Below, piece by piece: positions 1-24,144 of a stretch of DNA of 64,000 bases (position 1 is its first letter; the number at the start of each line of letters is the position of its first letter). Location of the stretch: IMG/VR virus record IMGVR_UViG_3300002895_000002, positions 128,001 through 192,000 of that record; one strand, 5' to 3'. The stretch is from a virus. Lineage: Duplodnaviria; Caudoviricetes. The position numbers were made by a program, and so were the translations under genes. The notes beneath the pieces are model-generated. The model worked only from the letters and a program-made list of their open reading frames with translations, had not been told where the DNA came from and searched no databases.

Positions 1-1
1 G

Positions 2-577
2 ATCGCAGAGTTCAAAGAGAGCCTCATCGACCAGATCGATGAATATCTCGGATACTTCGTTGAAGAGTTCACTAAGGAGAATGAGGCCCAAGTCAATGAA
101 GGCGTTCTGACCTCAGTTTCCAAGCGTGTTCTTGAGAACTTCAGCAGCATGGTTGAAGAATTCAACATGCAGCTCGCAGACCAAACCCTGGAAGAAGACA
201 AGAAGATACCCGAGCTTACCAAGCGGCTCAACGATGCAGTAACCAAGCTTGGTGAGAAGAATGCGGAGCTGCAGGAATCCCTCCGTGAACTGGCAATTCG
301 TGATCGTATGGATCTTGTCCCTGGTGTCATTGCCAAAGAAAAGTTCCGCAAACTGGCTGAGGGCCTTTCCTACACGCTGGGCGAGGAAGAGGAGTTTGTT
401 AGCAAGCTCAACTTCTTTGTTGAGAGCGTGAGGAGTGAAGTTACTTCTTCCGCCGAGAAGCTCGAAGAGCCCCAGGAAGTCGTTGAAGAAGGCACTAAAG
501 ACGAGAAGACCGTCATTACCGAATCTACGGAAGAGAAGCCGGCAAGTCGGATCACCGACTATCTGTCTCGGCTGTAA
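2..577 (+). CDS. gp22: Prohead core scaffolding protein, 5'-partial
   Basis: Frame open from nt 2 (IAEFKESLIDQIDEYLGYFVEEFTKENE..., like the gp22 'VDxYLxYVVEEW' motif); acidic coiled coil; directly upstream of the major capsid gene. Confidence 0.8.
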   Translation: MAEFKESLIDQIDEYLGYFVEEFTKENEAQVNEGVLTSVSKRVLENFSSMVEEFNMQLADQTLEEDKKIPELTKRLNDAVTKLGEKNAELQESLRELAIRDRMDLVPGVIAKEKFRKLAEGLSYTLGEEEEFVSKLNFFVESVRSEVTSSAEKLEEPQEVVEEGTKDEKTVITESTEEKPASRITDYLSRL

Positions 578-4256: not shown

Positions 4257-4266
4257 GGAGAAACAA

Positions 4267-4737: not shown

Positions 4738-4764
4738 CCAGCATTAAATAAAAATAATGATGAT

Positions 4765-4796
4765 ATGGGCGTAGAGAAATCTACGCCCATTCTTTT
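4765..4796 (+). terminator. Intrinsic terminator
   Basis: ATGGGCGTAGA-GAAA-TCTACGCCCAT then TCTTTT. Confidence 0.85.
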
Positions 4797-4857
4797 GACT
4801 GATACAAAATTCCCTTTATTTGCTTGGAAAAATCTTGATAAATATAAGTTTTAGCCA

Positions 4858-4923
4858 AATTTGACAGGTCCCGGATTTTCGTGTTATCCTTAAACCGTAG
4901 GTTGGGGCGGGGGTTCAATAGTC
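4858..4923 (+). repeat. G-rich promoter-containing repeat, copy 1 (inverted copy at 59044-59109)
   Basis: AATTTGACAGGTC (13 bp) and TGTTATCCTTAAACCGTAGGTTGGGGCGGGGGTTCAATAGTC (42 bp) are identical to the reverse complement of 59097-59109 and 59044-59085. Confidence 0.95.
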
Positions 4924-6584: not shown

Positions 6585-6596
6585 TGTCAACCGAAT

Positions 6597-6625
6597 TTGA
6601 CATTCTAATGAAGTTCATGTATTAT
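6597..6625 (+). promoter_or_regulatory. Sigma70-type promoter for gp55
   Basis: TTGACA-17-TATTAT. Confidence 0.8.
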
Positions 6626-6668
6626 GGAATTACGATATAAGAACGCGATGTAACAAGGGAGTAACATC

Positions 6669-7130
6669 ATGGCGAAGCGGGAAAAGAATCACTTCATCTC
6701 CAACGCGAGACTCACGGAAATACTTGGAGCTTGGGCAGATGAATGTCGAAAGAAGAAGGAAAAGGATGAACCCCATCCCCCTATGCCAGACGAGGTTGCA
6801 ATAGCGATTCTCCGGATGGTTGAGAAGTATGGCAGGATGTCGAACTTCTCGGGATATACCTATCTTGATGAGATGCAGTCCGAAGCAATCCTTACCTGCG
6901 TTCGCTATGCTCACAACTTTGACAGAAACAAGTCGAACAATGCTTTTGCCTGGATCACTCAAATCATCCATAACTCATTCGTTGCTGTGATCAATGATGA
7001 AAAGAAGGAAGCCCAGAAAAAGTTTGAACTCACCAAAGAACTCAACCCAAAGCTTGGAAAGTCAGACTTCCACGATATCAAACTCGACGATTCAAATTCC
7101 ATCTCAATCCCGGAAGGATTTTTGAACTAA
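6669..7130 (+). CDS. gp55: Late-transcription sigma factor
   Basis: NFSGYTYLDEMQSEAILTCVRYAHNFD..NAFAWITQIIHNSF matches gp55; synteny with gp47/gp46. Confidence 0.93.
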   Translation: MAKREKNHFISNARLTEILGAWADECRKKKEKDEPHPPMPDEVAIAILRMVEKYGRMSNFSGYTYLDEMQSEAILTCVRYAHNFDRNKSNNAFAWITQIIHNSFVAVINDEKKEAQKKFELTKELNPKLGKSDFHDIKLDDSNSISIPEGFLN

Positions 7131-7131
7131 C

Positions 7132-8286
7132 ATGACAGAGTCTATAAACATTCCGATTCTATCGGATATACATTTCGGACAGAAAGCATTCAATAAATCT
7201 GTCTTTGAAATGCAGATGTACTTTTTTGAGAAGCAGTTTTTCCCTTGGTGTTTGAAGCACGGGGTCAAGTATGTCCTTCACGGTGGTGACTTGTTCCATA
7301 ATAGGAACATCATCGACTGGTACATCATGACCGAGGTGAAGAAGCGTTTCTTTCAGTGGTTTGATGATAATGGGATCGAATTCCATACTATAGTTGGAAA
7401 CCACGACAGCTATTACAAGTCCACGATTGAGACCAACTCCCCTTGTGCAACAACTGCAGAATTTAAGAACGTTCACATATATTCCAAGCAAACAGTCATT
7501 CAGCTCGGAAAATATACGTTCGGGATGGTTCCGTGGATCATCGACGAGCACAATGCTGTTCTTCCGAAAGATGTTGATGTTATCCTCGGTCACTTTGAAG
7601 CCAAAGATTTCCAGCTAATGAAGGGGATATATTCTACTGATGGTTTTGACCTAACCTTCTTCAAGCCATACAAGCTAGTCTTGTCTGGTCATTATCACAT
7701 CAAATCACATAAACAGAACTTCTACATGGTTGGCACCCAGTATCAAACGTCCTGGGGTGACCACGGTATTGAGAAGGGATTCTACGTCCTTCAAGATAAC
7801 TTCAAGATGAAGTATATCGACAACACCGTTTCCCCTCGGTTTGTTAAACTCTTCTATAGAGAGATTGACGGTGTAAAGCAAATTCGCACTGTGGGTGAAA
7901 AGGGTGAAAAGACCAGAGAAGTAGATGCCAGTGAAGCCATTCAGGTTGTAAAGAAGAATTACTGTAAACTGATTGTGGAAAAATCCACAGACCAAGCGGC
8001 ACTGGATTCATTCTTTACTTCCCTCCAAGCTCGGTCGAGGGATGGTTACAAAATTGAACTCATTGATGCAAACGAAGTTATAGAATCGTTTGACTTTGAT
8101 GAGATCGAACAAAAAATCGTTGAAGAATCTGATGTTTTTGATACGATACATACATTCGTGGGTGGAATGACATTTGATAGTGATATTGACAAAGATGTGA
8201 TCTTTGATGTGTTCCGTGTTTTGTACCGTGAAGCAGAGGAACAACATACTGAGATCCAACAACAAAGAAACGGGAGTAACGAATGA
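7132..8286 (+). CDS. gp47: Mre11/SbcD-like recombination nuclease
   Basis: SDIHFG, GGDLFHNR, VGNHD, SGHYH metallophosphoesterase motifs. Confidence 0.93.
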   Translation: MTESINIPILSDIHFGQKAFNKSVFEMQMYFFEKQFFPWCLKHGVKYVLHGGDLFHNRNIIDWYIMTEVKKRFFQWFDDNGIEFHTIVGNHDSYYKSTIETNSPCATTAEFKNVHIYSKQTVIQLGKYTFGMVPWIIDEHNAVLPKDVDVILGHFEAKDFQLMKGIYSTDGFDLTFFKPYKLVLSGHYHIKSHKQNFYMVGTQYQTSWGDHGIEKGFYVLQDNFKMKYIDNTVSPRFVKLFYREIDGVKQIRTVGEKGEKTREVDASEAIQVVKKNYCKLIVEKSTDQAALDSFFTSLQARSRDGYKIELIDANEVIESFDFDEIEQKIVEESDVFDTIHTFVGGMTFDSDIDKDVIFDVFRVLYREAEEQHTEIQQQRNGSNE

Positions 8287-8732
8287 ATATCAACAGAATC
8301 CTTCATCAAAAAGGCCTTTCCAAGTTTGATCTCTGCTACAAACGCTCCAGCACCGGGTTTCCTCTTCCAAAGCAAACAGTAATAACGGTGGTATGGTCCG
8401 CTGGTGTGTTTGAACCCCCACATGAAGATGAGTACGGAATAACCTACGGTATTTCCGTCAAGTGTGCTGCTGATGAGATCTACATCCCAAAGATCGGATT
8501 GACCCTGGCTGTTCGTCGTTATGATCAGTCCCCGGTTCGGTTCAAAGGAAAAATCGAGACCCTCAAAACGGAAGGGCAGTTTGACTCCAACAAGGTGCAT
8601 GGAGCAATCTGTCATTCCATTTTCAGTGAGATTTCTGAAGGCAATCTCAATCTCTTTAGTGAGAACAGCAAAACCAAGGATGATGTCCTTGCTATGTGCT
8701 TTGAGTTTTTTGACAACTCCGGTCTTCGATAG
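8283..8732 (+). CDS. Hypothetical protein
   Basis: 149-aa ORF overlapping the gp47 stop; no motif recognised. Confidence 0.6.
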   Translation: MNINRILHQKGLSKFDLCYKRSSTGFPLPKQTVITVVWSAGVFEPPHEDEYGITYGISVKCAADEIYIPKIGLTLAVRRYDQSPVRFKGKIETLKTEGQFDSNKVHGAICHSIFSEISEGNLNLFSENSKTKDDVLAMCFEFFDNSGLR

Positions 8733-8767
8733 TAAACTATAAACATCACTGGAAGTTAGGGGCAACG

Positions 8768-10480
8768 ATGCTTGAGTTTGAAAGTCTTGAATGGTCGAAC
8801 TTCCTCAGCTATGGGAATCGGCCAACAAAATACGACTTCAAGAAGGGCGTGTCGAGAATAGCAGGAGAGAACGGTACTGGCAAGTCCACTATCGTTGATG
8901 CTCTCTGGTTTGCTCTTTTCGGGAAGACCTACAGGAAGATCAATCTTGGGATGTTGGTTAACTCAATCAATAAGAGAGACCTTCTGGTTATTTTGCGTTT
9001 TCGGGTTGACAACATTAAATATCGGATTGAACGTGGGCTCAAGCCGAACATTTTTCGTATCTACCAAGATGATGAGCTTGTTCCGCAAGAGGCAAAGAAC
9101 AAGTCATATCAGGAGATGCTCGAGCAGGAGATTCTTCAGTTCAACGAGAATCTTGCGGATCAAATCCTCGTAAAATCCCTCACTAAGAACATCTCTTTTC
9201 TTACCCTGGGAAAGGGCCCGAAGCGAGAGATTGTTGAAGGGATCTTTGACATTGAGATCTTCTCTACCATGAACAAGCTATGCAAGAGCAAGCTCGATCA
9301 GATTGAAACAAAGATTCTTGAGGCCAGGAAAGACATTGATGCAGCTAAAATGCTCCTGGATAACGAGTTTGCAAACGTCCAGCAGTTGATCAAACTCAAA
9401 CAGCAAATCGAAGATGATGCAAGGAAAAAAGTAGAAGCAACTGAAGAAAAGGTCCAGGAGCAACGCGATATTATTGAGAAGTGTCAGGTCGGACTTCAAA
9501 AAATAGCATCGTTCAAAACCAGGAGAAGTGACGCTAACGTTGAAAAGAGTAACGTCCTTGCCGATCTAAAGGAACTTAGGGATCAACATGCCAACCTGAA
9601 AGCAAAACATCAGTTTGCTCTAAACAAGATGAAGGTGTTTAACAGCACCTGTCCTGGCTGCCCTAAGCTCAAAGAGATTGAAGATAATACCGGAGCAGAG
9701 GACATTCTTCAGGCGATATTATCCAACGAAGCAAAACAGGAAGAGCTTGAGACTGTCAAGGCAGCACTGAATGAGAAGATCAAAAAACTTGACGAACTGA
9801 TATATAACGAGAACTTCCTTCATTCAAAAATTAAGACTGCCCAGCAATCAATCAATGATATGATAGAATCTGTTGCCACAACCGCCTCTGAGTCTATCGT
9901 CATTGATGAATCAAAGATGAAAGAATTTGAGAAGCAGAAAACTGAATGTGAATCAAAATACAATGCTCTTGTGTATCAGAAGAAGCACCTGGCTGTCGTT
10001 CGGATGCTCCTCTCGGATGAAGGAATCAAGACATATATCATCAAGCGTCATTTGCCAAGTATCAACAAGCTCCTGAATACATACCTTCAGAAGTTTCATA
10101 CAGACATCCTGTTCCACTTTGACAGTGAGTTCAATGAAGTGGTTCTCACAAGACACAAGGAGAACTTCAACTATTACAGCTTCTCAGAAGGACAGAAGAG
10201 AAGAATGGACTTGGCTGTTATGTTTGCCTTTATGGAATTTGCTAAGTTCAAAGCCAAGAAGAGCAACAACAACCTTCTCATCCTGGACGAGATAACTGCT
10301 GGGTGTGATGCCATCGCTGAAAACGCTCTTTACGACATCCTCAAGGAAGTGGTAAATAGAGAGGGTAAAGAAATCATAACTGTCAGCCACAGTATGGCTA
10401 TCGATCCTGAAAAGGTCGACCGACTTTTTCAAGTAACGATGGAACGTGGATTTAGTGTCCAAACGTCAGTAGAGGCATAA
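8768..10480 (+). CDS. gp46: Rad50/SbcC-like recombination ATPase
   Basis: GENGTGKST Walker A, CPGC zinc hook, FSEGQKRR signature, LILDE Walker B. Confidence 0.95.
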   Translation: MLEFESLEWSNFLSYGNRPTKYDFKKGVSRIAGENGTGKSTIVDALWFALFGKTYRKINLGMLVNSINKRDLLVILRFRVDNIKYRIERGLKPNIFRIYQDDELVPQEAKNKSYQEMLEQEILQFNENLADQILVKSLTKNISFLTLGKGPKREIVEGIFDIEIFSTMNKLCKSKLDQIETKILEARKDIDAAKMLLDNEFANVQQLIKLKQQIEDDARKKVEATEEKVQEQRDIIEKCQVGLQKIASFKTRRSDANVEKSNVLADLKELRDQHANLKAKHQFALNKMKVFNSTCPGCPKLKEIEDNTGAEDILQAILSNEAKQEELETVKAALNEKIKKLDELIYNENFLHSKIKTAQQSINDMIESVATTASESIVIDESKMKEFEKQKTECESKYNALVYQKKHLAVVRMLLSDEGIKTYIIKRHLPSINKLLNTYLQKFHTDILFHFDSEFNEVVLTRHKENFNYYSFSEGQKRRMDLAVMFAFMEFAKFKAKKSNNNLLILDEITAGCDAIAENALYDILKEVVNREGKEIITVSHSMAIDPEKVDRLFQVTMERGFSVQTSVEA

Positions 10481-10483
10481 TAT

Positions 10484-10978
10484 ATGCAGTCAGCAACTCC
10501 GGAACAACTGTCACAGCTCCTCAGACTGGCTTCTATATTGAGGGAAGGATTGAGTATAGTATGTGATACTACCAACTACCCAATCAATGTATACACTTCC
10601 GAAGATAGAACAAGTCTTGTTCTGGATGGGCCGCAGTTTGTATTCTTGATGCTACACCCGACTCGAAACAGTAAAGACATGATGACTCTTCATTTAGAAG
10701 TAGACATGAAATCAGCCCGAGCGGCTGCTATCGTAAAGACCATCTCAAACTTTATTGAATCAAAACGATGGCGTCTAGGCGAAGAGTTTTACTTTGATGA
10801 ATCTGACAATACTGTTACCTATGGTGAAGAAGCCAGAATTAAAAAGAAAGAGAAATTTATAAATAACAATGGATTTGAAACATGTCTTTTCTGTGAAAGT
10901 GTCGTTCAACAAGGAGCAGTGACAGATACTGGTTGTCCGTTGTGTCAACATAAAGTAACATCAATGCTCTGGAGCTAA
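10484..10978 (+). CDS. Hypothetical protein with C-terminal Zn ribbon
   Basis: CLFC...CPLC near the C-terminus. Confidence 0.6.
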   Translation: MQSATPEQLSQLLRLASILREGLSIVCDTTNYPINVYTSEDRTSLVLDGPQFVFLMLHPTRNSKDMMTLHLEVDMKSARAAAIVKTISNFIESKRWRLGEEFYFDESDNTVTYGEEARIKKKEKFINNNGFETCLFCESVVQQGAVTDTGCPLCQHKVTSMLWS

Positions 10979-10980
10979 GA

Positions 10981-11220
10981 ATGCCAACCCCATTAATGAA
11001 ATCACTGGCAAAGAAGTCTGGAAAAACGTCTGCTCAGGTCGAAAAAATGTGGGATTCTGTCAAGAATTCCCTCAAAGAACAAGGCCATGACGAAAATGAC
11101 CAAAGCTTCTATCCAAGATTGGTTGGCATTCTCAAGAAGAATCTTGGTTTGACAGAGCAGTATACCATCAATGAAAAGTTCATCACTCTTCTGGAGAGAT
11201 CAATAAGCGACACGAAATAA
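10981..11220 (+). CDS. Small basic hypothetical protein
   Basis: 79 aa, MPTPLMKSLAKKSGKT...VEKMWD; coherent ORF in the operon. Confidence 0.6.
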   Translation: MPTPLMKSLAKKSGKTSAQVEKMWDSVKNSLKEQGHDENDQSFYPRLVGILKKNLGLTEQYTINEKFITLLERSISDTK

Positions 11221-11325
11221 TCTACATACCCTACCACATACATCTATTATCCATCGCTAATCAGGGCACAGACACCGTCGCTTGAGACAAAGTCACCGCC
11301 CACAACACGCAAAGGAGAAACACAG

Positions 11326-12435
11326 ATGGCCAAAGCACCAGCCAAAGCTGGCGGTCTCGCCCAGCGAATGAAAGCAGCAGCAGGAACAGAGTATGCAGTC
11401 CTCATGGGAGAGGACGACGATCGTTTTGAGATTAAGGAATGGTTTGACACCGGGAACCTCCTTCTCAACGCCCTCATCTCTGCGGATCCATACAAGGGTG
11501 TCCCGGGCGGAAAGATCATTCAGCTCGCCGGACCAAACTCCGTTGGTAAGACCTACTTCTGTCTGGAGCTGCTCAAAGCTACTCAGAAGGCTGGGTATTT
11601 CAACATCCTGTACGATTCCGAGTTTGCCAACAACAACAAGCAAGATCTCATCAAACGTGGTTTGGATCTTGATAACCTGCTTTGGGTAGGTGTTGACATC
11701 GTTGAACGCCTCAAGACCTCCGTTCTCAAACAGCTCGACGAGATCCAGGATGGTGAGAAGGTAGCCATGATGATTGACTCCATCGGCAACCTGTCCACCA
11801 TCAAGGAAGTCACGGACTCCACTGAAGGTAACGACAAGAAAGATATGACCCGAGCCCAGCAGCTCAAGGCTCTGTTCAGAACCTGCACCCTCAAAGCCGG
11901 CGTCAAGGGTGTTCCGATGTTTCTTGTCAACCACGTCTATGCTGTGGTCGGTTCCAACGTGCCAACCAACCAGGTCGGCGGTGGCTCTGGATCCCTCTAC
12001 ATGAGCTCCATCATCCTCGAGCTGTCCAAGGCCCAAGACAAGAACGCCGACGGTGAGATCGTTGGTACGTGGATCACGTGTAAATCAGTCAAGAACCGCT
12101 TTGCTCGGGAACGCCAGAAGATCAAGGTCAACATCAACTTCAAAGAAGGGCTCGGTCGCTATTCCGGTCTCTTCGAGTTCTTCTACGACGAGGAAGAGGT
12201 CTTTACTCGGTCCGGCAACTACTACAAGAACCCGTGGACCGATCATTCCCTGCTCAAGAAAGATTTCACCCCTGAGGTTTGGGAAGAGATCCTCAAGGCT
12301 GGTGGTGCTGATTACCTCCGCAACCGGTTTGCCTACCAGTCAGACGCTATTGACATTCCTGATGAGGAAGAGACCGAGCCGGAATTGCTCACTGAGACCA
12401 AAAAGAAAAAGGGTGGCACAATAGAGATTCTGTAA
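11326..12435 (+). CDS. uvsX: RecA-like recombinase UvsX
   Basis: AGPNSVGKT, YDSE, MIDSIGNL, KDMTRAQQLKALFR, GGGSG motifs. Confidence 0.95.
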   Translation: MAKAPAKAGGLAQRMKAAAGTEYAVLMGEDDDRFEIKEWFDTGNLLLNALISADPYKGVPGGKIIQLAGPNSVGKTYFCLELLKATQKAGYFNILYDSEFANNNKQDLIKRGLDLDNLLWVGVDIVERLKTSVLKQLDEIQDGEKVAMMIDSIGNLSTIKEVTDSTEGNDKKDMTRAQQLKALFRTCTLKAGVKGVPMFLVNHVYAVVGSNVPTNQVGGGSGSLYMSSIILELSKAQDKNADGEIVGTWITCKSVKNRFARERQKIKVNINFKEGLGRYSGLFEFFYDEEEVFTRSGNYYKNPWTDHSLLKKDFTPEVWEEILKAGGADYLRNRFAYQSDAIDIPDEEETEPELLTETKKKKGGTIEIL

Positions 12436-14013: not shown

Positions 14014-14988
14014 ATGGCTATCATCATTGACAGCTCACACCTACTCGCCCGGTGCGTGCATGGCGGAAGAAAAGAGATTCTTGAGCGACCGGAGTATGCA
14101 GCTCACATGCTCTTCAACTCCATTCTCATGAACTCCCGGAAATTTGGAGCGTCAAAAGAGAATCCGGTTATTATGGCCCTTGACACCAAGCCATACTGGC
14201 GGTCTAAGTATTATGTCGAAAATAAGGATCAGTTCGTTGAATACCGGACCAACCCTAAGTATCAAGCATACAAAGGTCAGCGGGAAAAGGACGATACCTT
14301 ACCATGGGAAAAAATCTACGAGGTGGCTAATGCCTGCTACGCTGCGATTGAACAATATTCCGATTTCCATGTTGTTGGAGTCATTGGAGCAGAGGCCGAC
14401 GATATTATCGCTGTCGGAGCAAATCACTTCTCAGAAAAAGGACAACCTGTCACTGTCGTATCTTCCGATAAGGACTTCCAACAACTCCACAGACCAGGAA
14501 GAGGAGTCCAAGTCTGGGATCCAATCAAAAAAACCTTCAGACCAGACATTGACCCGGAGTATTACAAAAAGTTACACGCGATCTCTGGAGATCCCGGAGA
14601 TAACATTCTCCCTATCAAAAGAGGAGCAGGTCCAAATACAAAAACAGCTGAACGATATGCTCGAGACCTCGATACTTACCTTGCTACAGACGCAGAGCTC
14701 AGAGATCGTTACAAATTCAACAGAACACTCACAGACTTCGATTATATTCCCGTTGAAGTATCCAGTCGCATAGTTGAGGCGATTGAGAACCATACCTACT
14801 CATTCTCTGCAATGGACTTGATGAAAGTTTTCATTAAATACAGGCTCAATGCAATTGGTGAGAGAGTTCAGGAGTTTCGCCTTCCTGAGAAGACACAAGT
14901 CAAAACCAGCACCAGTGCGAAGGTATACAAGGAAGCCGCAAAGCAACAGCAGGTACTCAACAACACATTGGAGGATTTTTTCGGCTAA
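14014..14988 (+). CDS. rnh: T4-type RNase H / 5'-3' exonuclease
   Basis: AEADDII, SSDKDFQQL, GDPGDNI FEN/5' nuclease motifs. Confidence 0.92.
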   Translation: MAIIIDSSHLLARCVHGGRKEILERPEYAAHMLFNSILMNSRKFGASKENPVIMALDTKPYWRSKYYVENKDQFVEYRTNPKYQAYKGQREKDDTLPWEKIYEVANACYAAIEQYSDFHVVGVIGAEADDIIAVGANHFSEKGQPVTVVSSDKDFQQLHRPGRGVQVWDPIKKTFRPDIDPEYYKKLHAISGDPGDNILPIKRGAGPNTKTAERYARDLDTYLATDAELRDRYKFNRTLTDFDYIPVEVSSRIVEAIENHTYSFSAMDLMKVFIKYRLNAIGERVQEFRLPEKTQVKTSTSAKVYKEAAKQQQVLNNTLEDFFG

Positions 14989-15167
14989 CAACGACCTAGA
15001 ATCCAACCTTCAGGTTGAGTGTTTTCATTATATAACCCACATTCTTTGTTATATGGATTATTATACCAACGTTTTCCTGAAGGTATTCCTTTGTTATGTG
15101 CTGGTCTTCCTTTTCGTGTATTTTGATTCTGTTCGATGATACGGTCGTAGATAGATTGATAATCCAT
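14985..15167 (-). pseudogene. Internally deleted HNH/NUMOD homing endonuclease (mini element)
   Basis: N-terminus MDYQSIYDRIIEQN nearly matches 53867 (MDYQAIYDRIIERN); keeps PAHNKG and KRWYNN..PEGWILGR motifs; no HNH domain. Confidence 0.7.
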
Positions 15168-15178
15168 GACAGTTCCCC

Positions 15179-15270
15179 TATAAATAGATGTGACAGGGAC
15201 AGCAGGGAAGTTCCCCTCTCCGTTGGTTGTGGTGGTCAGACCCAACCTTACCTGTTCCCTTTTATTTATC
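15179..15270 (+). ncRNA. Candidate structured RNA (three-way junction) between convergent late promoters, copy 1
   Basis: TATAAATA (+) at 15179 and TATTTATC (-) at 15263; P1 ACAGG/CCTGT, P2 CAGC/GTTG, P3 GTTG/CAAC; homologous to 53885-53970 with compensatory changes. Confidence 0.55.
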
Positions 15271-15297
15271 AAATCCCATGAAAGGTATAGAAATAAT

Positions 15298-15483
15298 ATG
15301 AATGTGATGTGTAACGCAGATCCCAAGACTAGACCTAGACATTGTTGTCAACGCACCAACCTTTGTTGTGTTTTCTGTCTCAAGATTAAAGACTGTTTTG
15401 CTGAAGCAGAAGCATGTAAGATTCAGAAACCATGTGACGCGGATTGTAACACTGTTGATGATCCGTGTCCGTTCGCAATCTGA
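15298..15483 (+). CDS. Cys-rich microprotein
   Basis: 61 aa with 11 Cys, downstream of a late promoter. Confidence 0.5.
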   Translation: MNVMCNADPKTRPRHCCQRTNLCCVFCLKIKDCFAEAEACKIQKPCDADCNTVDDPCPFAI

Positions 15484-15626: not shown

Positions 15627-16652
15627 ATGGCACTCGACCCGTATGATGAAATGCAGTTGGTATATCGGATAAACCTCCGGAACTTGAGAAAAGTCCCAAA
15701 CGGTTACATCTTCTCATGTCCTATCTGCAACGAGGGTACGCACCCCAATAGAAAGAGGGGTGCTATCCTCGGTCCCGTTGCAAACAAGCCCTACACAACC
15801 GTTCTTTGCCATAACTGCAATCCAGATGGGATGTCTTTTCGTCGGTTTGTAGAGACAGTCGACCCAATTCTCTTCCTCGAATACCAACGTCTTGAGAAAG
15901 AGCAGTTCATTAAGGATCTCAAAGAAGGAAAGATCAATAAGAAGCAAAAGATCATTGACAATGTAGCTCCAGTTTATGATGAGGTTAGCTTCTACAAGCT
16001 CAACCCCGATACCTTCGTTCAATGCACGGATAATCCGGCAGCATTCCAGTATGCTCACTACCAACGGAAGATCCCAAGAAATATCATCAGTGAGTTGATG
16101 TATTGCCCTAAGAAGACTATCAACGGAAGGCCCAATCCTTTCTATGACATGCTGATCTTCCCTCTGTATAGTGAACAGATCAAAGGCTACCCGATTGATG
16201 CACATGTTCATGGGTTTCAGGGTCGAAGCATTAGGGGTGAGAAACGGTTCTATACATTCAGTAAGAACGAAGCATTCAAAGTGTACAACCTTTTTCGGGT
16301 AGATCGTCGGAAGGATGTTTACATTTTTGAAGCAATCATAGACTCCCTTGGCATTCCCAACTCGGTTGCTGCTCTGGGATCGTCCATGAGTGATCGGGTC
16401 AAGGACATGCTCCCTAAGCGGGTGTGGTGTTTGGATAATGACGACACTGGATATAAGAAATCTCTAAAGCTCGTTGAACAAGGCGAGCGGGTCCTTATCT
16501 GGCCTGAGGAGATCAAAGCTAAGGACTTCAACAAACTGGTAGAAAAGGGTGTATCCCACCAGCAGTTGACACGTCTGATAGAAGAATATACAATGGAAGG
16601 GATCAAAGCAAAAGTTCATCTTGAACTGAAACTATCAAAAAAGAAGAGGTGA
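15627..16652 (+). CDS. gp61: DNA primase
   Basis: FSCPICNE..CHNC Zn-binding domain, FQGRS, IFEAIIDS and LDNDDTG Toprim motifs, KDFN. Confidence 0.93.
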   Translation: MALDPYDEMQLVYRINLRNLRKVPNGYIFSCPICNEGTHPNRKRGAILGPVANKPYTTVLCHNCNPDGMSFRRFVETVDPILFLEYQRLEKEQFIKDLKEGKINKKQKIIDNVAPVYDEVSFYKLNPDTFVQCTDNPAAFQYAHYQRKIPRNIISELMYCPKKTINGRPNPFYDMLIFPLYSEQIKGYPIDAHVHGFQGRSIRGEKRFYTFSKNEAFKVYNLFRVDRRKDVYIFEAIIDSLGIPNSVAALGSSMSDRVKDMLPKRVWCLDNDDTGYKKSLKLVEQGERVLIWPEEIKAKDFNKLVEKGVSHQQLTRLIEEYTMEGIKAKVHLELKLSKKKR

Positions 16653-16951
16653 TGAAGATGCCAGCGTATGATTTTTACTGCTCGCAGTGCAACAAAACGT
16701 ATGAAATCAAGATGACCATGTCCGAACACTCCGAACAGAAGGACAAAATGACCTGTCAGGAATGCCACCAACCCCTCAGTCAAACCGTATCTCCACTCCG
16801 GTTTACTCTCAAGGGCTCTGGTTGGTATGCTGATGGGCCTGGAAACAACTCGAACGGTTCTGGATATGGTGTAACTCAACGTGAGATGGACAAGAATGGG
16901 GATCTCACGAAAGGGATGGAAGACGCTATGATGAATGCTCCTCCCGAGTGA
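16649..16951 (+). CDS. FmdB-family Zn-ribbon protein
   Basis: MPAYDFYCSQC...CQEC..., FTLKGSGWY signature. Confidence 0.85.
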   Translation: MMKMPAYDFYCSQCNKTYEIKMTMSEHSEQKDKMTCQECHQPLSQTVSPLRFTLKGSGWYADGPGNNSNGSGYGVTQREMDKNGDLTKGMEDAMMNAPPE

Positions 16952-16998
16952 TAAATATCCAGCCCCAAGAAACGAACCAATCGAAAGGAATACCTTCC

Positions 16999-17862
16999 AT
17001 GTCTCAATTTTCCACCACTGATTTCTTTCTAACAGATTTTCAACGGCTCATTTGGGCCGATAACTATCGGGATCCCCAACATGATCCGACGGTGGAAGCA
17101 ACATTTCGACGAATGGCTGCAACAATCTTCGCCAATGAATCTGAGGAGCTCCAGCAGGAACTCTTTGATCAACAACTCATGGCCAAGATCTTCTTCGGTG
17201 GTCGCGTGTATAACCTCGGTCGTGGCCTGAAGAACGTCAATGCTTTCAACTGCTATGCGGCTCAGCGGTCCACCATGCCAGTTGACTCCATCTCCAACAT
17301 CTTCGCTGATATCACCAATGCAGCGGAGATCCTGAAGACCGAGGGCGGCATTGGGTTCAACTTTAACCACATCAGACCGAAGGGTACTCTCATCAAGGGC
17401 GTCGGTGTTGGTACTCCGGGTGTCCTGGCTTTCATGGAGATTCAGGACAAGACCGCCGATGTCATCACCCGTGGTTCTACCGGTGACATTATCCAGGCCG
17501 ACGAGAATACTCCGACCAAGAAGAAGATCCGCAAGGGCGCTCAGATATCCCTGTTGGACTGCCGCCATCCGGAAATCTTCGCCTACATCGATGCCAAGAA
17601 GATCCCCAACCGGTTTGTTTGGTTCAACATGTCGGTAATTATTACGGACCGGTTTATGGAAAGATGTTTAGAAAATATAAATAAAATAGTTATTGAACTA
17701 AATGATGGAACAAAACATGAACTAGACCCCAATGAAGAAATAGAAATAGATGGGGTTATAATGACAGCGAAGGAATATAAAGATGGGTGTGAAAATAATG
17801 CCACCAAAAGACGAATTTATCAAGATGATAAAACAATCAGTTCTTCTGAAAGATGTAGCTGA
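16999..17862 (+). CDS. nrdJ: Class II ribonucleotide reductase, fragment a, with a 65-aa foreign C-terminal extension from 17665
   Basis: FFGGR, AFNCY, GGIGFNF..IRPKG, RKGAQ, HPEI, FNMSV; the RNR sequence stops at TDRFMER (17664). Confidence 0.88.
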   Translation: MSQFSTTDFFLTDFQRLIWADNYRDPQHDPTVEATFRRMAATIFANESEELQQELFDQQLMAKIFFGGRVYNLGRGLKNVNAFNCYAAQRSTMPVDSISNIFADITNAAEILKTEGGIGFNFNHIRPKGTLIKGVGVGTPGVLAFMEIQDKTADVITRGSTGDIIQADENTPTKKKIRKGAQISLLDCRHPEIFAYIDAKKIPNRFVWFNMSVIITDRFMERCLENINKIVIELNDGTKHELDPNEEIEIDGVIMTAKEYKDGCENNATKRRIYQDDKTISSSERCS

Positions 17863-18695
17863 ATATTATAAAGTAAGCCAACAATCAATAATTAAATGGA
17901 TGAAAAAATATAACATCTATGATGAATTTAATTTTAAGCGTAATGTTGGTAAAGGAAATCTTGGAAAAACAATAATTTGTTCCGAAGAACTAATAATTCG
18001 ATTAAGAAAAATGGCAGATAATCGGAAAGGACAACCCGGCCATAAAAGAATACAAAGAATAAAGGAAAGGTGTTATATATGTGAACACGAATTTATAAAA
18101 AAAGAATCTGACGAAAAAAAAGTATGTTCTAAAAAATGTGCAATAGTTCTTCGAAGTATTGAAAATATAAAATCTATAAATGTGGTGTGCACATATTGCG
18201 GTACATTTATTGAAAAACCACTGTCTCTCATCAAAGAACATAATTTTTGTGATTATAATTGTTGTAATGCATGGCGAAAAGGAAAAACATATGAAGAACT
18301 ATATGGTGAAGATAAAGCAAATATTATTAAACAAAAAATAATGGCAAATAGATCAGAAAATACTATTATGGTTCTTACTCGTCCACATATCAAACTCAAA
18401 AAATGAAATGATTTCTAATGGGTTATATGATGGATTCCAAACTTCAAAGAAAATGTATCAATTTGAAATAGATGAATATAATCATGATTTACAATTATGT
18501 TTAGAAATTGACGGCGATTATTGGCATAATTATCCTTATGGAACACAACAAGATAAAAGGAAAAATACATTTCTTGCTAATAAGGGATTTACTGTATTAA
18601 GAATATGGGAACATGATATAAACACTAATTTGGGTGGTTGTATTGAAAAAATTAAGGAGACTATTGAATGCTTAAGCTCTCAAGCAAAGAAATAA
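17783..18695 (+). mobile_element. Vsr/DUF559-like homing endonuclease between nrdJ a and b (one +1 frameshift at the A6 run 18398-18403)
   Basis: AT-rich; HTH-like start, Cys fingers, GKTYEELYGE repeat, LEIDGDYWH...VLRIWEHD; AAGGA RBS. Confidence 0.8.
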
Positions 18696-20209
18696 AGAAC
18701 GTAAGAAATGGTGGTGACTGGGACCTGTGGTTCCCTGACATCAAGCATCCCGAGTACGACAAGCTCTGGAAGGGTGACTTCGATGCATGGGAAGCTGCCG
18801 GTCTTCCCAAGGTCATCTATCAGACCATCAAGGCACGGGAGCTCTGGGATAAGCTCATCCAAAACACCTACACCAGGAACGAGCCAGGCATTCTCTTCAT
18901 CGACAATGCCGAGAAGAATAACAACCTCACCAGGTACATGAAAGTGACGGGTGTGAACCCCTGCGGCGAGATCCTGATGTGTGCTGATCCTGGCATCGTG
19001 GAGATCGACGGTGTTATCTATGAGTACCTCGGTGACATCTGTAACCTCGGTGCTATCAACCTCACCCAGTTCTTCACCATCGAGAACGGCTTTGCCTGGG
19101 ATGCTTTCAAAGAGTCCGTAGCAGTGCTCGTCCGTGCTCTGGATAACGTCATCGACATCTCTGGGTATCCGCTGGAGAAGATCAAGAACGCCGCCATGCT
19201 TCGCCGTAAAATCGGCTGTGGTGTCATGGGATACGGCTCGTTGCTCTTCATGATGGGCTTCAAGTACGGCTCCCAGAAGGCCAACGAGTTCACCGAAGTG
19301 CTAATGAAAGAGTACGCCAATGCTGCATATCAGGCATCGGCCATGCTCGCCAAGGAGAAGGGTGCATTCCCGCTCTGGAAACCCGAGATGATCAACGATG
19401 GGTACATCGGCAACTCCGGGATGCTCACCGATGAAACACTGGACCTCATAGCAGCACACGGTCTCCGTAATGCTCAGCTGATGACCATCGCCCCGACAGG
19501 CACCACATCCATCTTTGCCGGTCTCGTCAGCGGCGGTGTTGAGCCGGTCTTCGAGAAGGAGTACACCCGGTGGGTCATCTCCAACCACAGAGCAGAGGAG
19601 CTTCTGGAAGGGCTCGATGCTCCTGACTACCGCAACGGTCAGTTCGTTGAGACGAAGGACTTCAAGTTCTCTATGGCTGGGGATGAGAAGGTCCTAGTGT
19701 CTCTGGATGGCACCCTGATGATCGACCAGAATCATGGCCTTCGCAAGAAAGAGATCTGCGAGGATTACGGTTGGTACTGGGCGAAGAAGCACCGCGATCC
19801 GGATGCCGTGACCTTTGCCAAACGCCTCGGCATCTACAAGACTGCCATGGAGTTGTCAGTCAAGGAGCACATGGATGCATTTAAAGTTATGTCTAAAGCA
19901 GTTGATATGTCAATTAGTAAATGTGTTGATGTTGAAACCACTATGGTCGAAATAGATGGGAAGATTGTTTATCTTGATGAACTGGAATATGGGGAGGAAG
20001 ATTCCTTTGTCCAAATGTCCGGCATGATAAAAAATCATAATCACATTGATGTTCCGATTAAAGCAACATATAATAATGGAATCACCGATGTGGTAGAAAT
20101 AACTTTTTCTGATCGGTCCTCAATCATATGTACACCCAACCACCGGTTATATACCGAAAATGGGTTTGAGCCGGCTATTGAAATTTTGGTAGGAACAAAA
20201 ATTGTGTAA
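18668..20209 (+). CDS. nrdJ: Class II ribonucleotide reductase, fragment b (catalytic NPCGE) ending in an N-intein
   Basis: AAGGAG RBS; EPGILFID, GVNPCGEI, ICNLGAINL, RRKIGCGVMG, TIAPTGT, DMSISK. Confidence 0.92.
   Translation: MLKLSSKEIKNVRNGGDWDLWFPDIKHPEYDKLWKGDFDAWEAAGLPKVIYQTIKARELWDKLIQNTYTRNEPGILFIDNAEKNNNLTRYMKVTGVNPCGEILMCADPGIVEIDGVIYEYLGDICNLGAINLTQFFTIENGFAWDAFKESVAVLVRALDNVIDISGYPLEKIKNAAMLRRKIGCGVMGYGSLLFMMGFKYGSQKANEFTEVLMKEYANAAYQASAMLAKEKGAFPLWKPEMINDGYIGNSGMLTDETLDLIAAHGLRNAQLMTIAPTGTTSIFAGLVSGGVEPVFEKEYTRWVISNHRAEELLEGLDAPDYRNGQFVETKDFKFSMAGDEKVLVSLDGTLMIDQNHGLRKKEICEDYGWYWAKKHRDPDAVTFAKRLGIYKTAMELSVKEHMDAFKVMSKAVDMSISKCVDVETTMVEIDGKIVYLDELEYGEEDSFVQMSGMIKNHNHIDVPIKATYNNGITDVVEITFSDRSSIICTPNHRLYTENGFEPAIEILVGTKIV
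19922..20209 (+). mobile_element. Split intein, N-terminal half (95 aa)
   Basis: Begins with Cys (CVDVETT) after SISK; block B CTPNH; ends AIEILVGTKIV-stop; AT-rich. Confidence 0.9.
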
Positions 20210-20223
20210 ACATAACCATCTTA

Positions 20224-20265
20224 TATAAATAGATATACTCATATTGACAAAGAGGATCTATTTAT
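20224..20265 (+). promoter_or_regulatory. Late promoter within a hairpin covering the HEG start codon
   Basis: TATAAATA at 20224; perfect 10-bp IR ATAAATAGAT (20225)/ATCTATTTAT (20256) overlapping ATG 20264; AGAGGA RBS inside. Confidence 0.7.
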
Positions 20266-21346
20266 GCGAAATGTTGTTAAAAACACAATTCATCGATGGA
20301 ATAAGACGATGGATTTATCGCAGTATTCCATCGATGAATTGGAGGAATTCTTACAAAAAAAATTATATTGACTTTCCGAGAAATGTTAGGTATAATATAG
20401 GAAAGTGGATTGGTTCAGGGAAACCATTATCTGATTATTCTATTGCCGCAGCAGCACAACATCGGTCTGTCTTTTCTACTACCTATATTGCAGAGAAAAA
20501 TAAAAGGTATATAGAAAGTCTTCCGGAAAATGAAAAAAAGATACGGTATAAAAAATCATGTGAGAAGGGGCAAATAACACGAAAAGAGAGACACGGTTCT
20601 ATTTCCGAATCTTATCGTAAAGGGTTAATCCTAAAGGGCCAACGAACCGCATTACTATTAGGAATAACCGACACATTGTCTGATACTGAATTATTGTCTT
20701 TATCCGGTTACCAAAAGAAAAATAATTACCAGTTATTAACGGAAAGTGAAAAAGAGAAAAAAAGAATAGCCTGGAAAAAACAAATCTTAAAAATACCAAT
20801 GTGTTTGAAATCATCATTTCAGAATATCCCATTTTTTCAACCGTCGATGTGAACCAGTTGTCGGATGAAGAAATAGAAACCTGGTATAGATGTTACCGAT
20901 CAATAATGTCTATTAGAAGAATGAACAATAAACATCATTCTTATGGGAGATCAGGTCATTATTATTCTAGTAAAACACGAAAGAAACATTATTACAGATC
21001 ATCATATGAATTGAAGTTACTACAAATTCTAGATGAATTTGAATTTGTGATCGATTATATGACAGAACCGTACCACATTACATTAGACATAGGAAAAAGA
21101 TATGTTCCCGATTTTGTGATTGAAACTAAAAATGGTCGAATAGTAGTTGAAGTAAAACCAACGTTTAAACTAAAAGAATTTCTCGAATCTAAAGGTTATC
21201 AATTATTTTCTCAGCTATCCAATTTCGTTATTATGACCACCGAAGAAATAGACCAAGGAGAAGAAAATGTCAGATCCCAGATTGTTGAATATACAAAAAA
21301 CGTCAGATCGCATACCAGCGAGCTACAGATCAGAAAAAACGATTGA
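20264..21346 (+). mobile_element. TnsA-like PD-(D/E)XK homing endonuclease between the intein halves (two frameshifts at A runs)
   Basis: YRSSYE...YVPDF...VVEVKP; frames switch at A8 (20355-20362) and A7 (20757-20763). Confidence 0.72.
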
Positions 21347-22268
21347 AGATATAAAAAATGACCTTAATTCACTAAATTGGGATGATGTAACCAACCAACA
21401 TTTATTTAACCTGCGGGCTGTTATTTTTCCTCAACCGAAAACTGTAACTGGAATTCGTATGGTTGGAAAAAAACAAACCGGGGACCTAGAAATAGATCAT
21501 CCATCACATTCTTATTATGCAAATGGTGTACCTACTCATAATACAGTGAACCTCCCAGCTGATTATCCATATGACGATTTTGACAAACTCTTCAGGGATG
21601 CATGGAAGAGCGGTGTACGGGGTATCACTACCTACCGTGAAGGCACCATGACAGCGGTCCTCGAGACCAACAAGAAGAAGGACAAAGAGACCAAGAAGGC
21701 CAAGGAAGAGCTGAAGGACTTCTACGAGGAATGGGAAGGGCATGAGGACGGCCGTGTTCGCATAGACGATGTCCAACTTCCGTCCGAGTACCCCATGACC
21801 GGTTTCAAGATCGTCTCTGAAGGCCGCAAGTGGTACATCTCCGTTGCGTTCAAAGACAAAAAGATGACCAAGCCGTTTGGCATCTTCGTCACGACGAATC
21901 ACCGTGAAAATGACGTGAAAACGTACTCTGCTCTTTCGGCCATGGAGCAGTTGGCTACTGAAGCAGGCATCCTTGAGCGGATTATCGAGGACAATCGTAA
22001 GAAGTATGCTGGCCAGACCAATATCAATAAGCTGGCTCGGACTATCAGCCTTCTGTTGCGACACAACGTGGACATCGCTCTCATCGTAAAGACCCTCGAT
22101 GCTCTCGATGACATCCCGGTGTTCTCATTCATCTACCGCATCAAGAAGTTCCTCACCAAGTACATCACCGAGATGGAGAACGGAATGAGTTGTCCTGAGT
22201 GTGGTGAAACGTTGATCTACACCGAGGGATGCATCAAATGCTCTCAGTGTGCATACAGTAAATGCTAA
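21267..22268 (+). CDS. nrdJ: C-intein (ends at 21542) plus class II RNR fragment c (TSCPD-like domain and Zn ribbon)
   Basis: AAGGAG RBS; DLEIDHPSHSYYANGVPTHN then TVNLP; GVRGITTYREG; C-terminal CPECG..EGCIKCSQCAYSKC. Confidence 0.9.
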   Translation: MSDPRLLNIQKTSDRIPASYRSEKTIEDIKNDLNSLNWDDVTNQHLFNLRAVIFPQPKTVTGIRMVGKKQTGDLEIDHPSHSYYANGVPTHNTVNLPADYPYDDFDKLFRDAWKSGVRGITTYREGTMTAVLETNKKKDKETKKAKEELKDFYEEWEGHEDGRVRIDDVQLPSEYPMTGFKIVSEGRKWYISVAFKDKKMTKPFGIFVTTNHRENDVKTYSALSAMEQLATEAGILERIIEDNRKKYAGQTNINKLARTISLLLRHNVDIALIVKTLDALDDIPVFSFIYRIKKFLTKYITEMENGMSCPECGETLIYTEGCIKCSQCAYSKC

Positions 22269-22278
22269 GACGAAAAAG

Positions 22279-22322
22279 AGAAAATGGCGGGTTCTATAAA
22301 TAAGTAGAATCCGCCATTTTCT
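22279..22322 (+). terminator. Terminator hairpin with a late promoter across its loop
   Basis: 18-bp stem AGAAAATGGCGGGTTCTA/TAGAATCCGCCATTTTCT; TATAAATA at 22295-22302. Confidence 0.75.
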
Positions 22323-22339
22323 ATTTTTTGGAGAATATA

Positions 22340-22624
22340 ATGAGCAAGTTTGTCGTACTGTTGGAGCAGGTTCTCAATGAATCCCCAACCACCTATGAGC
22401 GACTGGTATCAAATGCCATCGAGAGCAAGAAGAGTAATCCTTCTGCTCCTGACTCTGAGCATATGAAGCATGTTGCTGGTGCAGACAAGGATCACAAAGA
22501 TCTTGTTGCTGCCCATCTCAAAGGTGATAAGGCCGTTGTGAAGGGTAAGATCAACATGATTTCAGGCAAAGGCCGAGTATGGAGCGACCACGCAGAAAAG
22601 CTCCGTGGAATTCTGGGGGTGTAA
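22340..22624 (+). CDS. Small late protein, candidate internal head protein
   Basis: Late promoter upstream; N-terminus MSKFVVLLEQVLNES. Confidence 0.6.
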   Translation: MSKFVVLLEQVLNESPTTYERLVSNAIESKKSNPSAPDSEHMKHVAGADKDHKDLVAAHLKGDKAVVKGKINMISGKGRVWSDHAEKLRGILGV

Positions 22625-22625
22625 C

Positions 22626-23042
22626 ATGAATAACTTCACTCGTCTTCTCGAAACCATCAACGAATCATGTCAGGGGCCAAGTCAGCTCCCTCTTAACAGT
22701 GAAGGGAAGCTGGAACTGTACAACCCGGATTTCTATCGCCGCCATGGTCTTGATCAACATGCTGAACTGATCACTAAAGCCAAGGAATATCAGGGTAAGA
22801 AGAAAAACCTGGAACAGAGGAAGCAGGCCCATAACGAGTTGGTTCTTCTTTATCGGAATGTTGGAAAGGCAGGGGGAGATCATCACGCTCTAGCCAAAGC
22901 AGTGCTCCATTACGCTGGACACACCGACATCCATGACAATCCGTCCACGATGACCAATCAACACCTCGAAGACCTCAAGAAGGATCCAAGCAAGTATGGT
23001 ATGGATCATCGGGTTGCTATAACCCACGCGAGGTTCAAATAA
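22626..23042 (+). CDS. Small late protein, candidate internal head protein
   Basis: N-terminus MNNFTRLLETINES; His/Lys-rich. Confidence 0.6.
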   Translation: MNNFTRLLETINESCQGPSQLPLNSEGKLELYNPDFYRRHGLDQHAELITKAKEYQGKKKNLEQRKQAHNELVLLYRNVGKAGGDHHALAKAVLHYAGHTDIHDNPSTMTNQHLEDLKKDPSKYGMDHRVAITHARFK

Positions 23043-23237: not shown

Positions 23238-24144
23238 ATGTTTATAATAGAACCAAAAAAGACTAAGTCGAATAAAAAAGTAGCAGATTATACTAGGTGT
23301 GAGGTTTCCTGTGACAAATGTGGTAAAGAATATAATAGTAGCTATAAACAGGTTACTGATGGTAGACTAAAATATCAGGTTGATTTATGTCGAAGTTGTA
23401 GACAGATTTATCAATATGAAAATGGAATTAGAGATAATCAAAGAGCTTCAATTAGTAAAAATGGAAAGGTAAGACGTATGAAGAAGTATTAGGGATTGAA
23501 GGTGCAAAAAAGCGAAAGAGAAATTGAAATCTTATACTGGCGAAAAATCATCAAATTGGGGTGGAACATGGCATGGCAGTAGAGAGAAAGCGGATCAACG
23601 AAATGCTAGTATAAAAGGTAAGACTATTATAGAGATATACGGTGAAGAGAAAGCAGAAACAATACGAAAAAAATTAGGTGTACCTGGCTCTCGAAATGGA
23701 CAATTTGGAAAACCGGCACCTACAGGATCCGGGAATGGGTGGTCTGGATGGTATAAAGGGTTCTTTTTTCGGTCATTATTGGAATTATCTTTTTTGGTAT
23801 CAATGATGAAACAAGGAAAACACATCATATCCGCAGAGAGTAAAGAATTTAGAACAGAATATACAGATTGGGAGGGAAAAAGAAGAAATTATTTTCCAGA
23901 TTATGTAATTGACGGAATTGTTTATGAAATCAAACCTAGTGGATTAGTGAATACTAAAACTAATAACCTAAAATTCAATGCTGCTAGAGAAAAATTTGGT
24001 ACGGAAAGATTTATCATTCTCACAGAAAATGATGTTGATAAAATATCCGATTCTACAATAAAATTCTTGTATGATAATAACGAAATAAAGTTTATTCAAC
24101 GATATGAAGAAAAGTATAAGGAGCGTTATGCCGAACTTTCTTGA
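23238..24144 (+). mobile_element. TnsA-like homing endonuclease (two frameshifts at A runs 23457-23461 and 23506-23511)
   Basis: Late promoter at 23211; CDKCG..CRSC; GWSGWYKG..FRSLLEL..YFPDY..YEIKP; AT-rich. Confidence 0.75.

Follow-up and report, generated by a model that had tools for sequence, protein, structure and literature searches.

In a 64,000-nucleotide stretch of a Caudoviricetes genome (the window; bases 128001-192000 of IMG/VR record IMGVR_UViG_3300002895_000002, which is 213,116 bp long and estimated to be 100% complete), nrdJ, the gene for a class II ribonucleotide reductase (RNR), lies in three pieces. We consider it likely that two homing endonuclease gene (HEG) cassettes account for the breaks and that the enzyme is restored in two ways: by a split intein at the second break (site 2), and at the first (site 1) by non-covalent assembly with cassette-encoded tails, of the type known from Aeh1 NrdA. 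In this proposal, two independent cassettes would have cut a single RNR gene into three translated pieces. At site 2, the intein halves would associate after translation and ligate NrdJ-b to NrdJ-c (SISK-TVNLP), giving a chain of 659 residues. At site 1, the cassette would end NrdJ-a with an acidic tail and restart NrdJ-b with a basic 11-residue leader and a ribosome-binding site of its own. The spliced b-c chain would next associate non-covalently with NrdJ-a to form a single barrel that has a composite active site, like the one formed by Aeh1 NrdA-a and NrdA-b; the conserved core of the tail would aid this assembly, and tail and leader would both contribute to the interface. Both nuclease genes would since have decayed in this genome, leaving an arrangement that is now inherited vertically.

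The three pieces of nrdJ

A first-pass annotation, made from the sequence of the window, had described three open reading frames (ORFs) with separate translation signals, and these were confirmed. The ORFs nrdJ-a (16999-17862, 287 aa), nrdJ-b (18668-20209, 513 aa) and nrdJ-c (21267-22268, 333 aa) all lie on the + strand, each with its own Shine–Dalgarno (SD) sequence (AAAGGA at 16984-16989, AAGGAG at 18654-18659 and AAGGAG at 21255-21260, respectively) at 6-9 nt upstream of the ATG. The B12-dependent RNR of T. maritima (1xje) was the top match of all three fragments, which follow one another in order along it (a, residues 137-233; b, 253-524/567-621; c, 595-637), and Pfam Ribonuc_red_lgC (PF02867) matched a (E 7e-23) and b (E 1e-67). 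Using Pfam, 1xje and alignment to uninterrupted relatives, the nrdJ-a extein was placed at 16999..17664 (residues 1-222, ending ...TDRFMER). The nrdJ-b extein is at 18701..19921 (407 residues, ending ...SISK) and the nrdJ-c extein, which starts TVNLP, at 21543..22268 (241 residues plus stop). The distribution of catalytic motifs was also as annotated, in both sequence and alignments: AFNCY, with the first redox Cys, is in a; NPCGE (the thiyl radical Cys) and ICNLG are in b; and a Cys-rich C-terminal tail (CxxC...CxxC...C) is in c. All of these motifs are kept across 36 homologues. Judged from its sequence, nrdJ is a class II (B12-dependent) RNR gene, and dependence on adenosylcobalamin is predicted. 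NrdB and NrdD (PF00268, PF13597) were not found in the 213-kb record, and nrdJ is therefore the sole RNR of the phage.

The limits of the inserts were set by intact relatives. Syntenic, uninterrupted nrdJ genes of 868 aa are present in contigs L003 (protein P0002) and L004 (P0003), and in blastn and codon alignments both skip exactly 17659-18717 and 19922-21542. Insert 1 falls between ...TDRFM and WDLWFPD, where the eight intact-allele codons HAVEADDT have given way to ER on the 5' side of the insert and to VRNGGD on its 3' side. Insert 2 (19922-21542, 1621 nt) falls between SISK and TVNLP. Length is kept at both sites, and the joined exteins amount to 870 residues compared with 868 in the intact protein. 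The intact allele, skipping the same two stretches, was likewise the only one recovered in contigs of four other public runs (sediment, biofilm, groundwater and sludge). Together, the orthologues and these contigs fix both breakpoints to the codon. A search for near-identical phage records found none.

The two inserts have a GC content of 28% (insert 1) and 34% (insert 2), compared with 50-53% for the exteins. Between the window and L003, the exteins have a ratio of nonsynonymous to synonymous substitution rates (dN/dS) of 0.064, and when L004 served as the outgroup, 17 amino-acid changes were assigned to the window copy alone and 16 to the uninterrupted copy of L003 alone. The exteins are under strong purifying selection, with no excess change in the split copy. 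Phage nrdJ can therefore gather several fractures under purifying selection, being in three pieces here and in four in another contig, L006.

Compared with T. maritima, this nrdJ clade also has an insertion of ~15 residues, located between NPCGE and CNLG (window 18977-19036, residues ~104-123 of b). Its sequence, C-A-D-P-G-I-VEIDGVIYEY-LGD, resembles the start of the N-intein at site 2, C-V-D-V-E-T-T-M-VEIDGKIVYLDELEY, and the GC content there is normal. The insertion may be an old intein scar, or the resemblance may be due to chance.

A split intein at the second break

The features of site 2 identify it as a genuine split intein around a free-standing nuclease gene, predicted to splice. Its N-half (19922..20209, + strand) has 95 residues followed by TAA (20207-20209), with Cys1 and a block B of TPNH; its C-half (21267..21542, +) has 92 residues and ends ...THN. 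Between the two halves are a 54-nt spacer, containing a TATAAATA box (the T4-type late-promoter consensus; 20224..20231, +) and an SD (AGAGGA, 20251-20256), then the ATG of nuclease gene 2 (20264..21346, +), and finally the SD and ATG of the C-half at 21255-21269. The N-half aligned over its full length to TIGR01445 (E 1.8e-4; 22.4 bits, just below the cut-off of 24.5) and was also matched by PF14890, and the C-half scored 19.1 bits against TIGR01443, above the cut-off of 15.6. In addition to Cys1, TPNH and the terminal HN, the intein has a +1 Thr that is invariant in the 36 homologues.

Related elements support this assignment. Homologous N-halves occur at the same insertion site in proteins P0026 and P0065, and L006 carries a homologous split intein with the same site and layout, in which no catalytic residue has been lost and the C-half is conserved along all of its 92 residues. 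An exhaustive search with the C-half returned 16 proteins, of which 12-13 are ~310-330 residues long and match at their N-terminus (residues 4-92), as expected of c-type fragments; no contiguous form of the intein was found in this search of representative proteins. Some 12 sequence clusters of such fragments share the C-half over its full length. A contiguous intein masked by sequencing errors in A runs was considered and rejected, since a stop codon and a spacer with its promoter box, followed by an SD and an ATG, separate the N-half from the nuclease gene, since L006 has the same layout and since the representative proteins include no contiguous form. Since the lineage has outlived the nuclease at site 2, we argue that splicing has been maintained. 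The first-pass annotation had the enzyme assembled from three polypeptides. Three separate translations are indeed indicated, but trans-splicing would leave two chains, a and a b-c chain of 659 aa.

Nuclease gene 2 is decayed in the window. Three-frame translation against its L006 homologue placed frameshifts in an A8 run (20355-20362) and near 20757-20800, and the L006 gene is itself broken at other positions. Earlier this gene had been called a TnsA-like HEG. The product is a PD-(D/E)xK nuclease, carrying a PDF...EVK motif and having PHROG matches too. The TnsA label is less firm: the Pfam scores are sub-threshold (TnsA-like PF08722, 25.0 bits compared with a cut-off of 26.5; DUF790, 26.0 bits), and the best Foldseek matches, TnsA 1t0f/1f1z (E 2.6e-3, TM 0.38), came from a low-confidence model (pLDDT 59), so that the fold match is only supportive.

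Fractured genes in which a split intein surrounds a free-standing HEG have been described for NrdJ-1/2, NrdA-1..7, gp41 and IMPDH, all at loci broken in two (Dassa et al. 2009, PMC2677866). Site 2 resembles these loci in its order of extein and N-intein, stop, short control spacer, same-strand nuclease, and C-intein and extein, and in being phage-borne and within an RNR catalytic subunit. It differs in its insertion between SISK and T instead of the thiyl-radical Cys region, in having a decayed nuclease of the TnsA-like PD-(D/E)xK type and not a GIY-YIG or Vsr-like one, and in its C-half, which at 92 residues is unusually long and is conserved throughout. The site-2 element belongs to a split-intein family, marked by its +1 Thr and long C-half, that has yet to be characterised. 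Unlike the two-part loci, this nrdJ also has a second break of another kind.

The presence of two different rejoining modes in one class II enzyme, as annotated, is supported, and covalent and non-covalent repair side by side in one gene would provide a natural test bed. The annotation had named no known counterpart of such a double fracture, and here two points need to be kept apart. We found no paper on both modes in one gene, on a tail-bearing cassette family or on a four-piece nrdJ, within an incomplete coverage of the literature; multiple fracture as such is not unique, as the L006 nrdJ consists of four pieces (4072-4920, 5953-6987, 8001-9356 and 10413-11408) with three nuclease cassettes between them (L006:4072-11408). 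Several mobile insertions in one RNR gene are also known from nrdE of Brochothrix phage A9, which lies in four ORFs owing to three introns and an intein (PMC3653736). In contrast to that gene, which relies on RNA splicing or protein splicing in cis, nrdJ here has one split intein and one break without a splicing element.

The breaks in L006 nrdJ are not all alike. Breaks 1 (...MLS/C ... SN/CRHPD) and 3 (SISK/C ... HN/T) resemble canonical split inteins. At break 2 (TNP/C), the downstream fragment has ...ILNVD before CGE, not ...VHN, and the upstream fragment holds a block-F-like stretch; from these features, the intein at break 2 may no longer splice.

The first break and proposed assembly of the enzyme

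Cassette 1 (17659..18718, + strand), as delimited by the blastn breakpoints and contig joints, is foreign DNA with recoded flanking codons. It encodes a C-terminal tail for NrdJ-a (17665..17862, +; 65 codons plus stop) with a core of 35 codons at 17677-17781 (INK...EYK), then nuclease gene 1 (17783..18695, +), and an 11-residue leader for NrdJ-b (MLKLSSKEIKN; 18668..18700, +), whose SD lies within the 3' end of the nuclease gene. The tail has an isoelectric point (pI) of 4.6 and a net charge of -6, and the leader a pI of 9.7. A TATAAATA box (17676..17683, +) is located within the tail-coding region, upstream of the nuclease gene.

Nuclease 1 had been annotated as Vsr-like; it matched DUF559 (E 4e-10) and I-Bth0305I (3r3p, E 0.002) and has the motif EIDGDYWH...D. 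In the window, the gene is frameshifted into two ORFs (17783-18406 and 18408-18695) by an extra A in 18398-18403. In contig L005 it is a single ORF of 289 aa, but the catalytic His is changed to Tyr there; intact homologues are present in contigs L013 and L015. Nuclease 1 is predicted to have been lost twice independently, through the extra A in the window and the His-to-Tyr change in L005. I-Bth0305I, the Vsr-like EDxHD enzyme that its catalytic domain matches, is intron-encoded in recA (Taylor et al. 2011, PMC3239194; PDB 3r3p), in contrast to the free-standing, decayed gene in nrdJ.

A group I or group II intron at site 1 was rejected on three grounds. No Rfam family was matched at E up to 1 over 16500-23000. 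Outside the nuclease ORF, insert 1 has just ~118 nt on the 5' side and ~5 nt on the 3' side, which leaves no room for a ribozyme core. The flanks of cassette 1 folded no better than shuffles (z -1.6 and -0.9). An intein at site 1 was also rejected. The +1 residue is not a nucleophile (Val in both the window and L005 and Ile in the L013 and L015 copies; V, L or M in 36/36 homologues), the place of TxxH is taken by DPNE, DFDE or DPSE, the C-part has only 11 residues, and no TIGR or Pfam intein model matched the tail. The ends of the insert are not conserved, with C, V or Y-L as the first residue and N, T or T as the last (window/L005, L013 and L015, respectively). Because the relatives vary at the first, last and +1 residues, the C...N pattern of insert 1 is accidental. 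In hhalign, tail residues 8-30 aligned to the block-B region of N-inteins (score 21.0, P 9e-4; 1/40 column shuffles reached 19.3), a weak similarity that gives a hint of ancestry only. The C...N ends in the window and L005, along with this P of ~1e-3, are what would favour covalent rejoining at site 1 as well, by an unusual minimal intein or by RNA splicing, but with the intron and intein evidence above we regard it as very unlikely. The junction peptide FMERVRNGG, which had been proposed as a mass spectrometry target, would not be expected if site 1 is unspliced, as the sequence argues.

Cassette 1 was found in four contigs (the window, L005, L013 and L015), representing three diverged nrdJ lineages. 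In L005, which comes from a different run, the cassette is 99.4% identical to that of the window, yet sits within an L003-like nrdJ with a co-conversion tract of ~16 flanking codons (~214-229). Site 2 is uninterrupted in L005, and b and c form one ORF of 659 aa. A near-identical cassette in differing nrdJ backgrounds indicates a recent move between lineages. In L013 and L015, the same site-1 arrangement occurs in nrdJ genes 40-42% identical to that of the window, with leaders homologous to the window's, and L015 has a complete two-piece nrdJ in which all catalytic motifs are present. No close relatives of nuclease 1 were found in IMG/VR and only two distant ones in a large protein set; no paralogues of cassette 1 were found elsewhere in this genome.

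The tail is the best-conserved part of the cassette. Compared with L013 and L015, the 35-codon core is 71-80% identical, the nucleases 43-45% and the exteins 40-42%. The dN/dS of the core is 0.09-0.14 at saturated synonymous sites (proportion of synonymous differences, pS, 0.56-0.69; dS > 1), and the other two reading frames are closed. Amino acids kept while synonymous sites are saturated indicate constraint on the peptide fused to NrdJ-a. This is comparative evidence for a selected function, not read-through debris.

Consistent with a role in assembly, the ipSAE was 0.85 when a was modelled in complex with b(1-418), compared with 0.00 for the best control (the ipSAE mark was reached by 51/78 solved complexes and 2/108 mismatched pairs). 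The runs agreed in at least 96% of contacts, with a partner pLDDT of at least 79, and the modelled interface includes tail residues 225-264 and leader residues 1-11. It is unlikely that the tail is conserved for the benefit of the cassette itself, for example in controlling nuclease expression, with the two chains associating without it. The tail DNA does hold the TATAAATA box and the nuclease SD, the nuclease start codon directly follows the conserved EYK, and in Aeh1 the tails are not needed for formation of the a/b heterodimer itself (PMC3045599). However, a benefit to the cassette fits poorly with amino acids that are kept at saturated synonymous sites (dN/dS ~0.1) in a region with its other frames closed, and the model places the tail core against chain b.

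The preferred reading of site 1, assembly through insert-derived tails, has a precedent. Mobile nuclease genes usually spare the host gene by means of an intron or an intein. The third route had stood as a single case, in Aeh1, and the present cassette adds a family of four contigs. For Aeh1 NrdA-a/NrdA-b, the insert-derived tails were shown biochemically, in that single phage, to be essential for activity (Crona et al. 2011, PMC3045599; also Friedrich et al. 2007). As in nrdA-a/mobE/nrdA-b, site 1 has a free-standing nuclease gene in an RNR catalytic-subunit gene without an intron or intein; both fragments have their own translation signals, and the active-site cysteines are on different chains. 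The nuclease gene likewise overlaps the downstream fragment, the break lies between two adjacent barrel strands, and the C- and N-terminal tails are insert-derived and oppositely charged. Unlike the Aeh1 enzyme, NrdJ is class II and not class Ia, the break is at another position in the fold, the nuclease is Vsr/EDxHD and not HNH, and the charge polarity is reversed, with an acidic tail and a basic leader. The evidence also differs in kind, being biochemical for the Aeh1 tails and comparative here, with conservation across diverged copies known from sequence alone.

Class II RNRs are also split naturally, as in NrdJa/NrdJb of Pseudomonas aeruginosa. Thermus phage phiYS40 nrdJ-a/b is similarly split, without mobile elements (cited in PMC3653736). 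These resemble the present case in building a B12-type RNR from two separately translated chains, but their splits are elsewhere in the protein and come without a nuclease cassette or cassette-borne tails.

Several points weigh against this reading, in which the break at site 1 is evident and its mechanism is probably of the Aeh1 type. The argument is built on sequence and models rather than on protein, RNA or activity. The window allele was not found in any indexed run, and its stops are known from the assembled record. There are four instances of cassette 1 only, from which the role of the tail is deduced by conservation alone, and the complex model may have passed simply because a and b make up one known fold between them. 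Site 1, as seen when the uninterrupted protein was modelled (pLDDT 86.9), lies within a helix (215-222) between strands 207-213 and 226-232, an ordered element and not a loose loop, where a break could be harmful. The near-identity of cassette 1 in the window and L005 means that the insertion may be recent, in which case the rate tests on the exteins have little power for the period after it. Since phage RNRs are often dispensable, a nonfunctional copy could also linger for some time.

Two alternatives were considered. The first is that nrdJ is dead or dying, inactivated by the site-1 insertion, and that its intact-looking exteins mirror the recency of that event. The 99.4% identity, which implies recent arrival in at least one of the two contigs, the break in an ordered helix, the greater frequency of intact alleles in public runs (four studies) and the decay of all three nearby nuclease genes would fit this. 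Even so, we consider it rather unlikely. The same break and tail persist in nrdJ genes of ~40% identity, and in L015 the exteins and catalytic motifs are complete; this persistence is a stronger argument than the rate tests. In addition, the tail is under strong purifying selection, a strong SD and ATG are placed such that the join keeps the length, the split copy has no excess of amino-acid changes (17 vs 16), and the genome has no other RNR. The second alternative, that errors of assembly or sequencing in a metagenomic record gave rise to the breaks, is exceedingly unlikely. In its favour, the frameshifts of all three nuclease genes lie in or close to A runs, and the window allele is absent from the indexed runs; on the other side, the stop, tail and restart at site 1 are reproduced in the independent assemblies of L005, L013 and L015, and the stop, spacer and restart at site 2 in L006. 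The window and L005 agree at all other A6-A8 runs of cassette 1, and inserts of 1.0 and 1.6 kb with their own promoters and ribosome-binding sites are beyond single-base errors.

If the enzyme does assemble as proposed, the cassette at site 1 could be viewed as a self-neutralising mobile element of a distinct and heritable type. In this tentative view, which we rate as possible but somewhat doubtful, a HEG without an intron or intein would carry a peptide 'clasp', made up of the 35-residue tail core and the 11-residue leader, that allows the invaded enzyme to work as two chains. Such an element would have moved among nrdJ genes of ~40% identity with its clasp better conserved than its nuclease, and it would perhaps derive from a split intein that lost splicing. 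The tail-leader pair is also a candidate for use as a natural tag with which split proteins could be assembled.

Some uninterrupted genes have additional sequence at this position. In L109, L066 and L019 (near 3001-3260), FME(K/R)V is separated from WDLIFP by a native loop of ~20-25 residues whose position is exactly that of site 1, and the codons flanking cassette 1 (FMER...) look like those of these loop-bearing lineages. The loop-bearing nrdJ genes may point to the original host gene of cassette 1.

Other nuclease genes and promoters near nrdJ

Downstream of nrdJ, the window contains a free-standing paralogue of nuclease gene 2 (23238..24144, +) with an RSSxEL...PDF...E(V/I)KP motif. Such a paralogue is found shortly 3' of nrdJ in three phages (window 23238-24144, L003:8673-9365 and L006:11475-12215), and all copies have a Zn-finger part at the N-terminus together with the motif GxGxxG(W/Y)...RSSxEL...PDF...E(V/I)KP. 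In the window it is in two frames (~23470-23510), whereas L003 and L006 each have it as one unbroken ORF. Its presence fits a free-standing nuclease having moved into the intein.

Within a 7-kb stretch, all three nuclease genes carry frameshifts that coincide with A runs or lie close to them (18398-18403, 20355-20362, ~20757-20800 and ~23470-23510). Homologues in other contigs consist of one ORF (L005, L003, L006) or have their breaks at other positions (L006). These frameshifts may reflect independent decay after fixation; alternatively, they may provide slippage-dependent low expression.

The TATAAATA box occurs eight times in the window, always on the + strand (5011, 10858, 15179, 17676, 20224, 22295, 23211 and 60193), compared with 1.5 expected, and each of the three nuclease genes has one of the boxes a short way upstream. 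Along with a gene order of uvsX-gp41-rnh-primase-like, these boxes suggest that the phage is T4-like and expresses its nuclease genes late.

In L005, a GIY-YIG (LEM-3-like) nuclease gene (L005:2919-3695, -) is located between a Zn-ribbon gene and nrdJ-a; neither the window nor L003 or L004 has it. This extra gene marks the nrdJ neighbourhood as a hot spot for nuclease genes. Further upstream in the window, a low-GC ORF with NUMOD3-like GxPxxxKG repeats (14985-15326, -) precedes the primase-like gene and is probably the remnant of a homing endonuclease.

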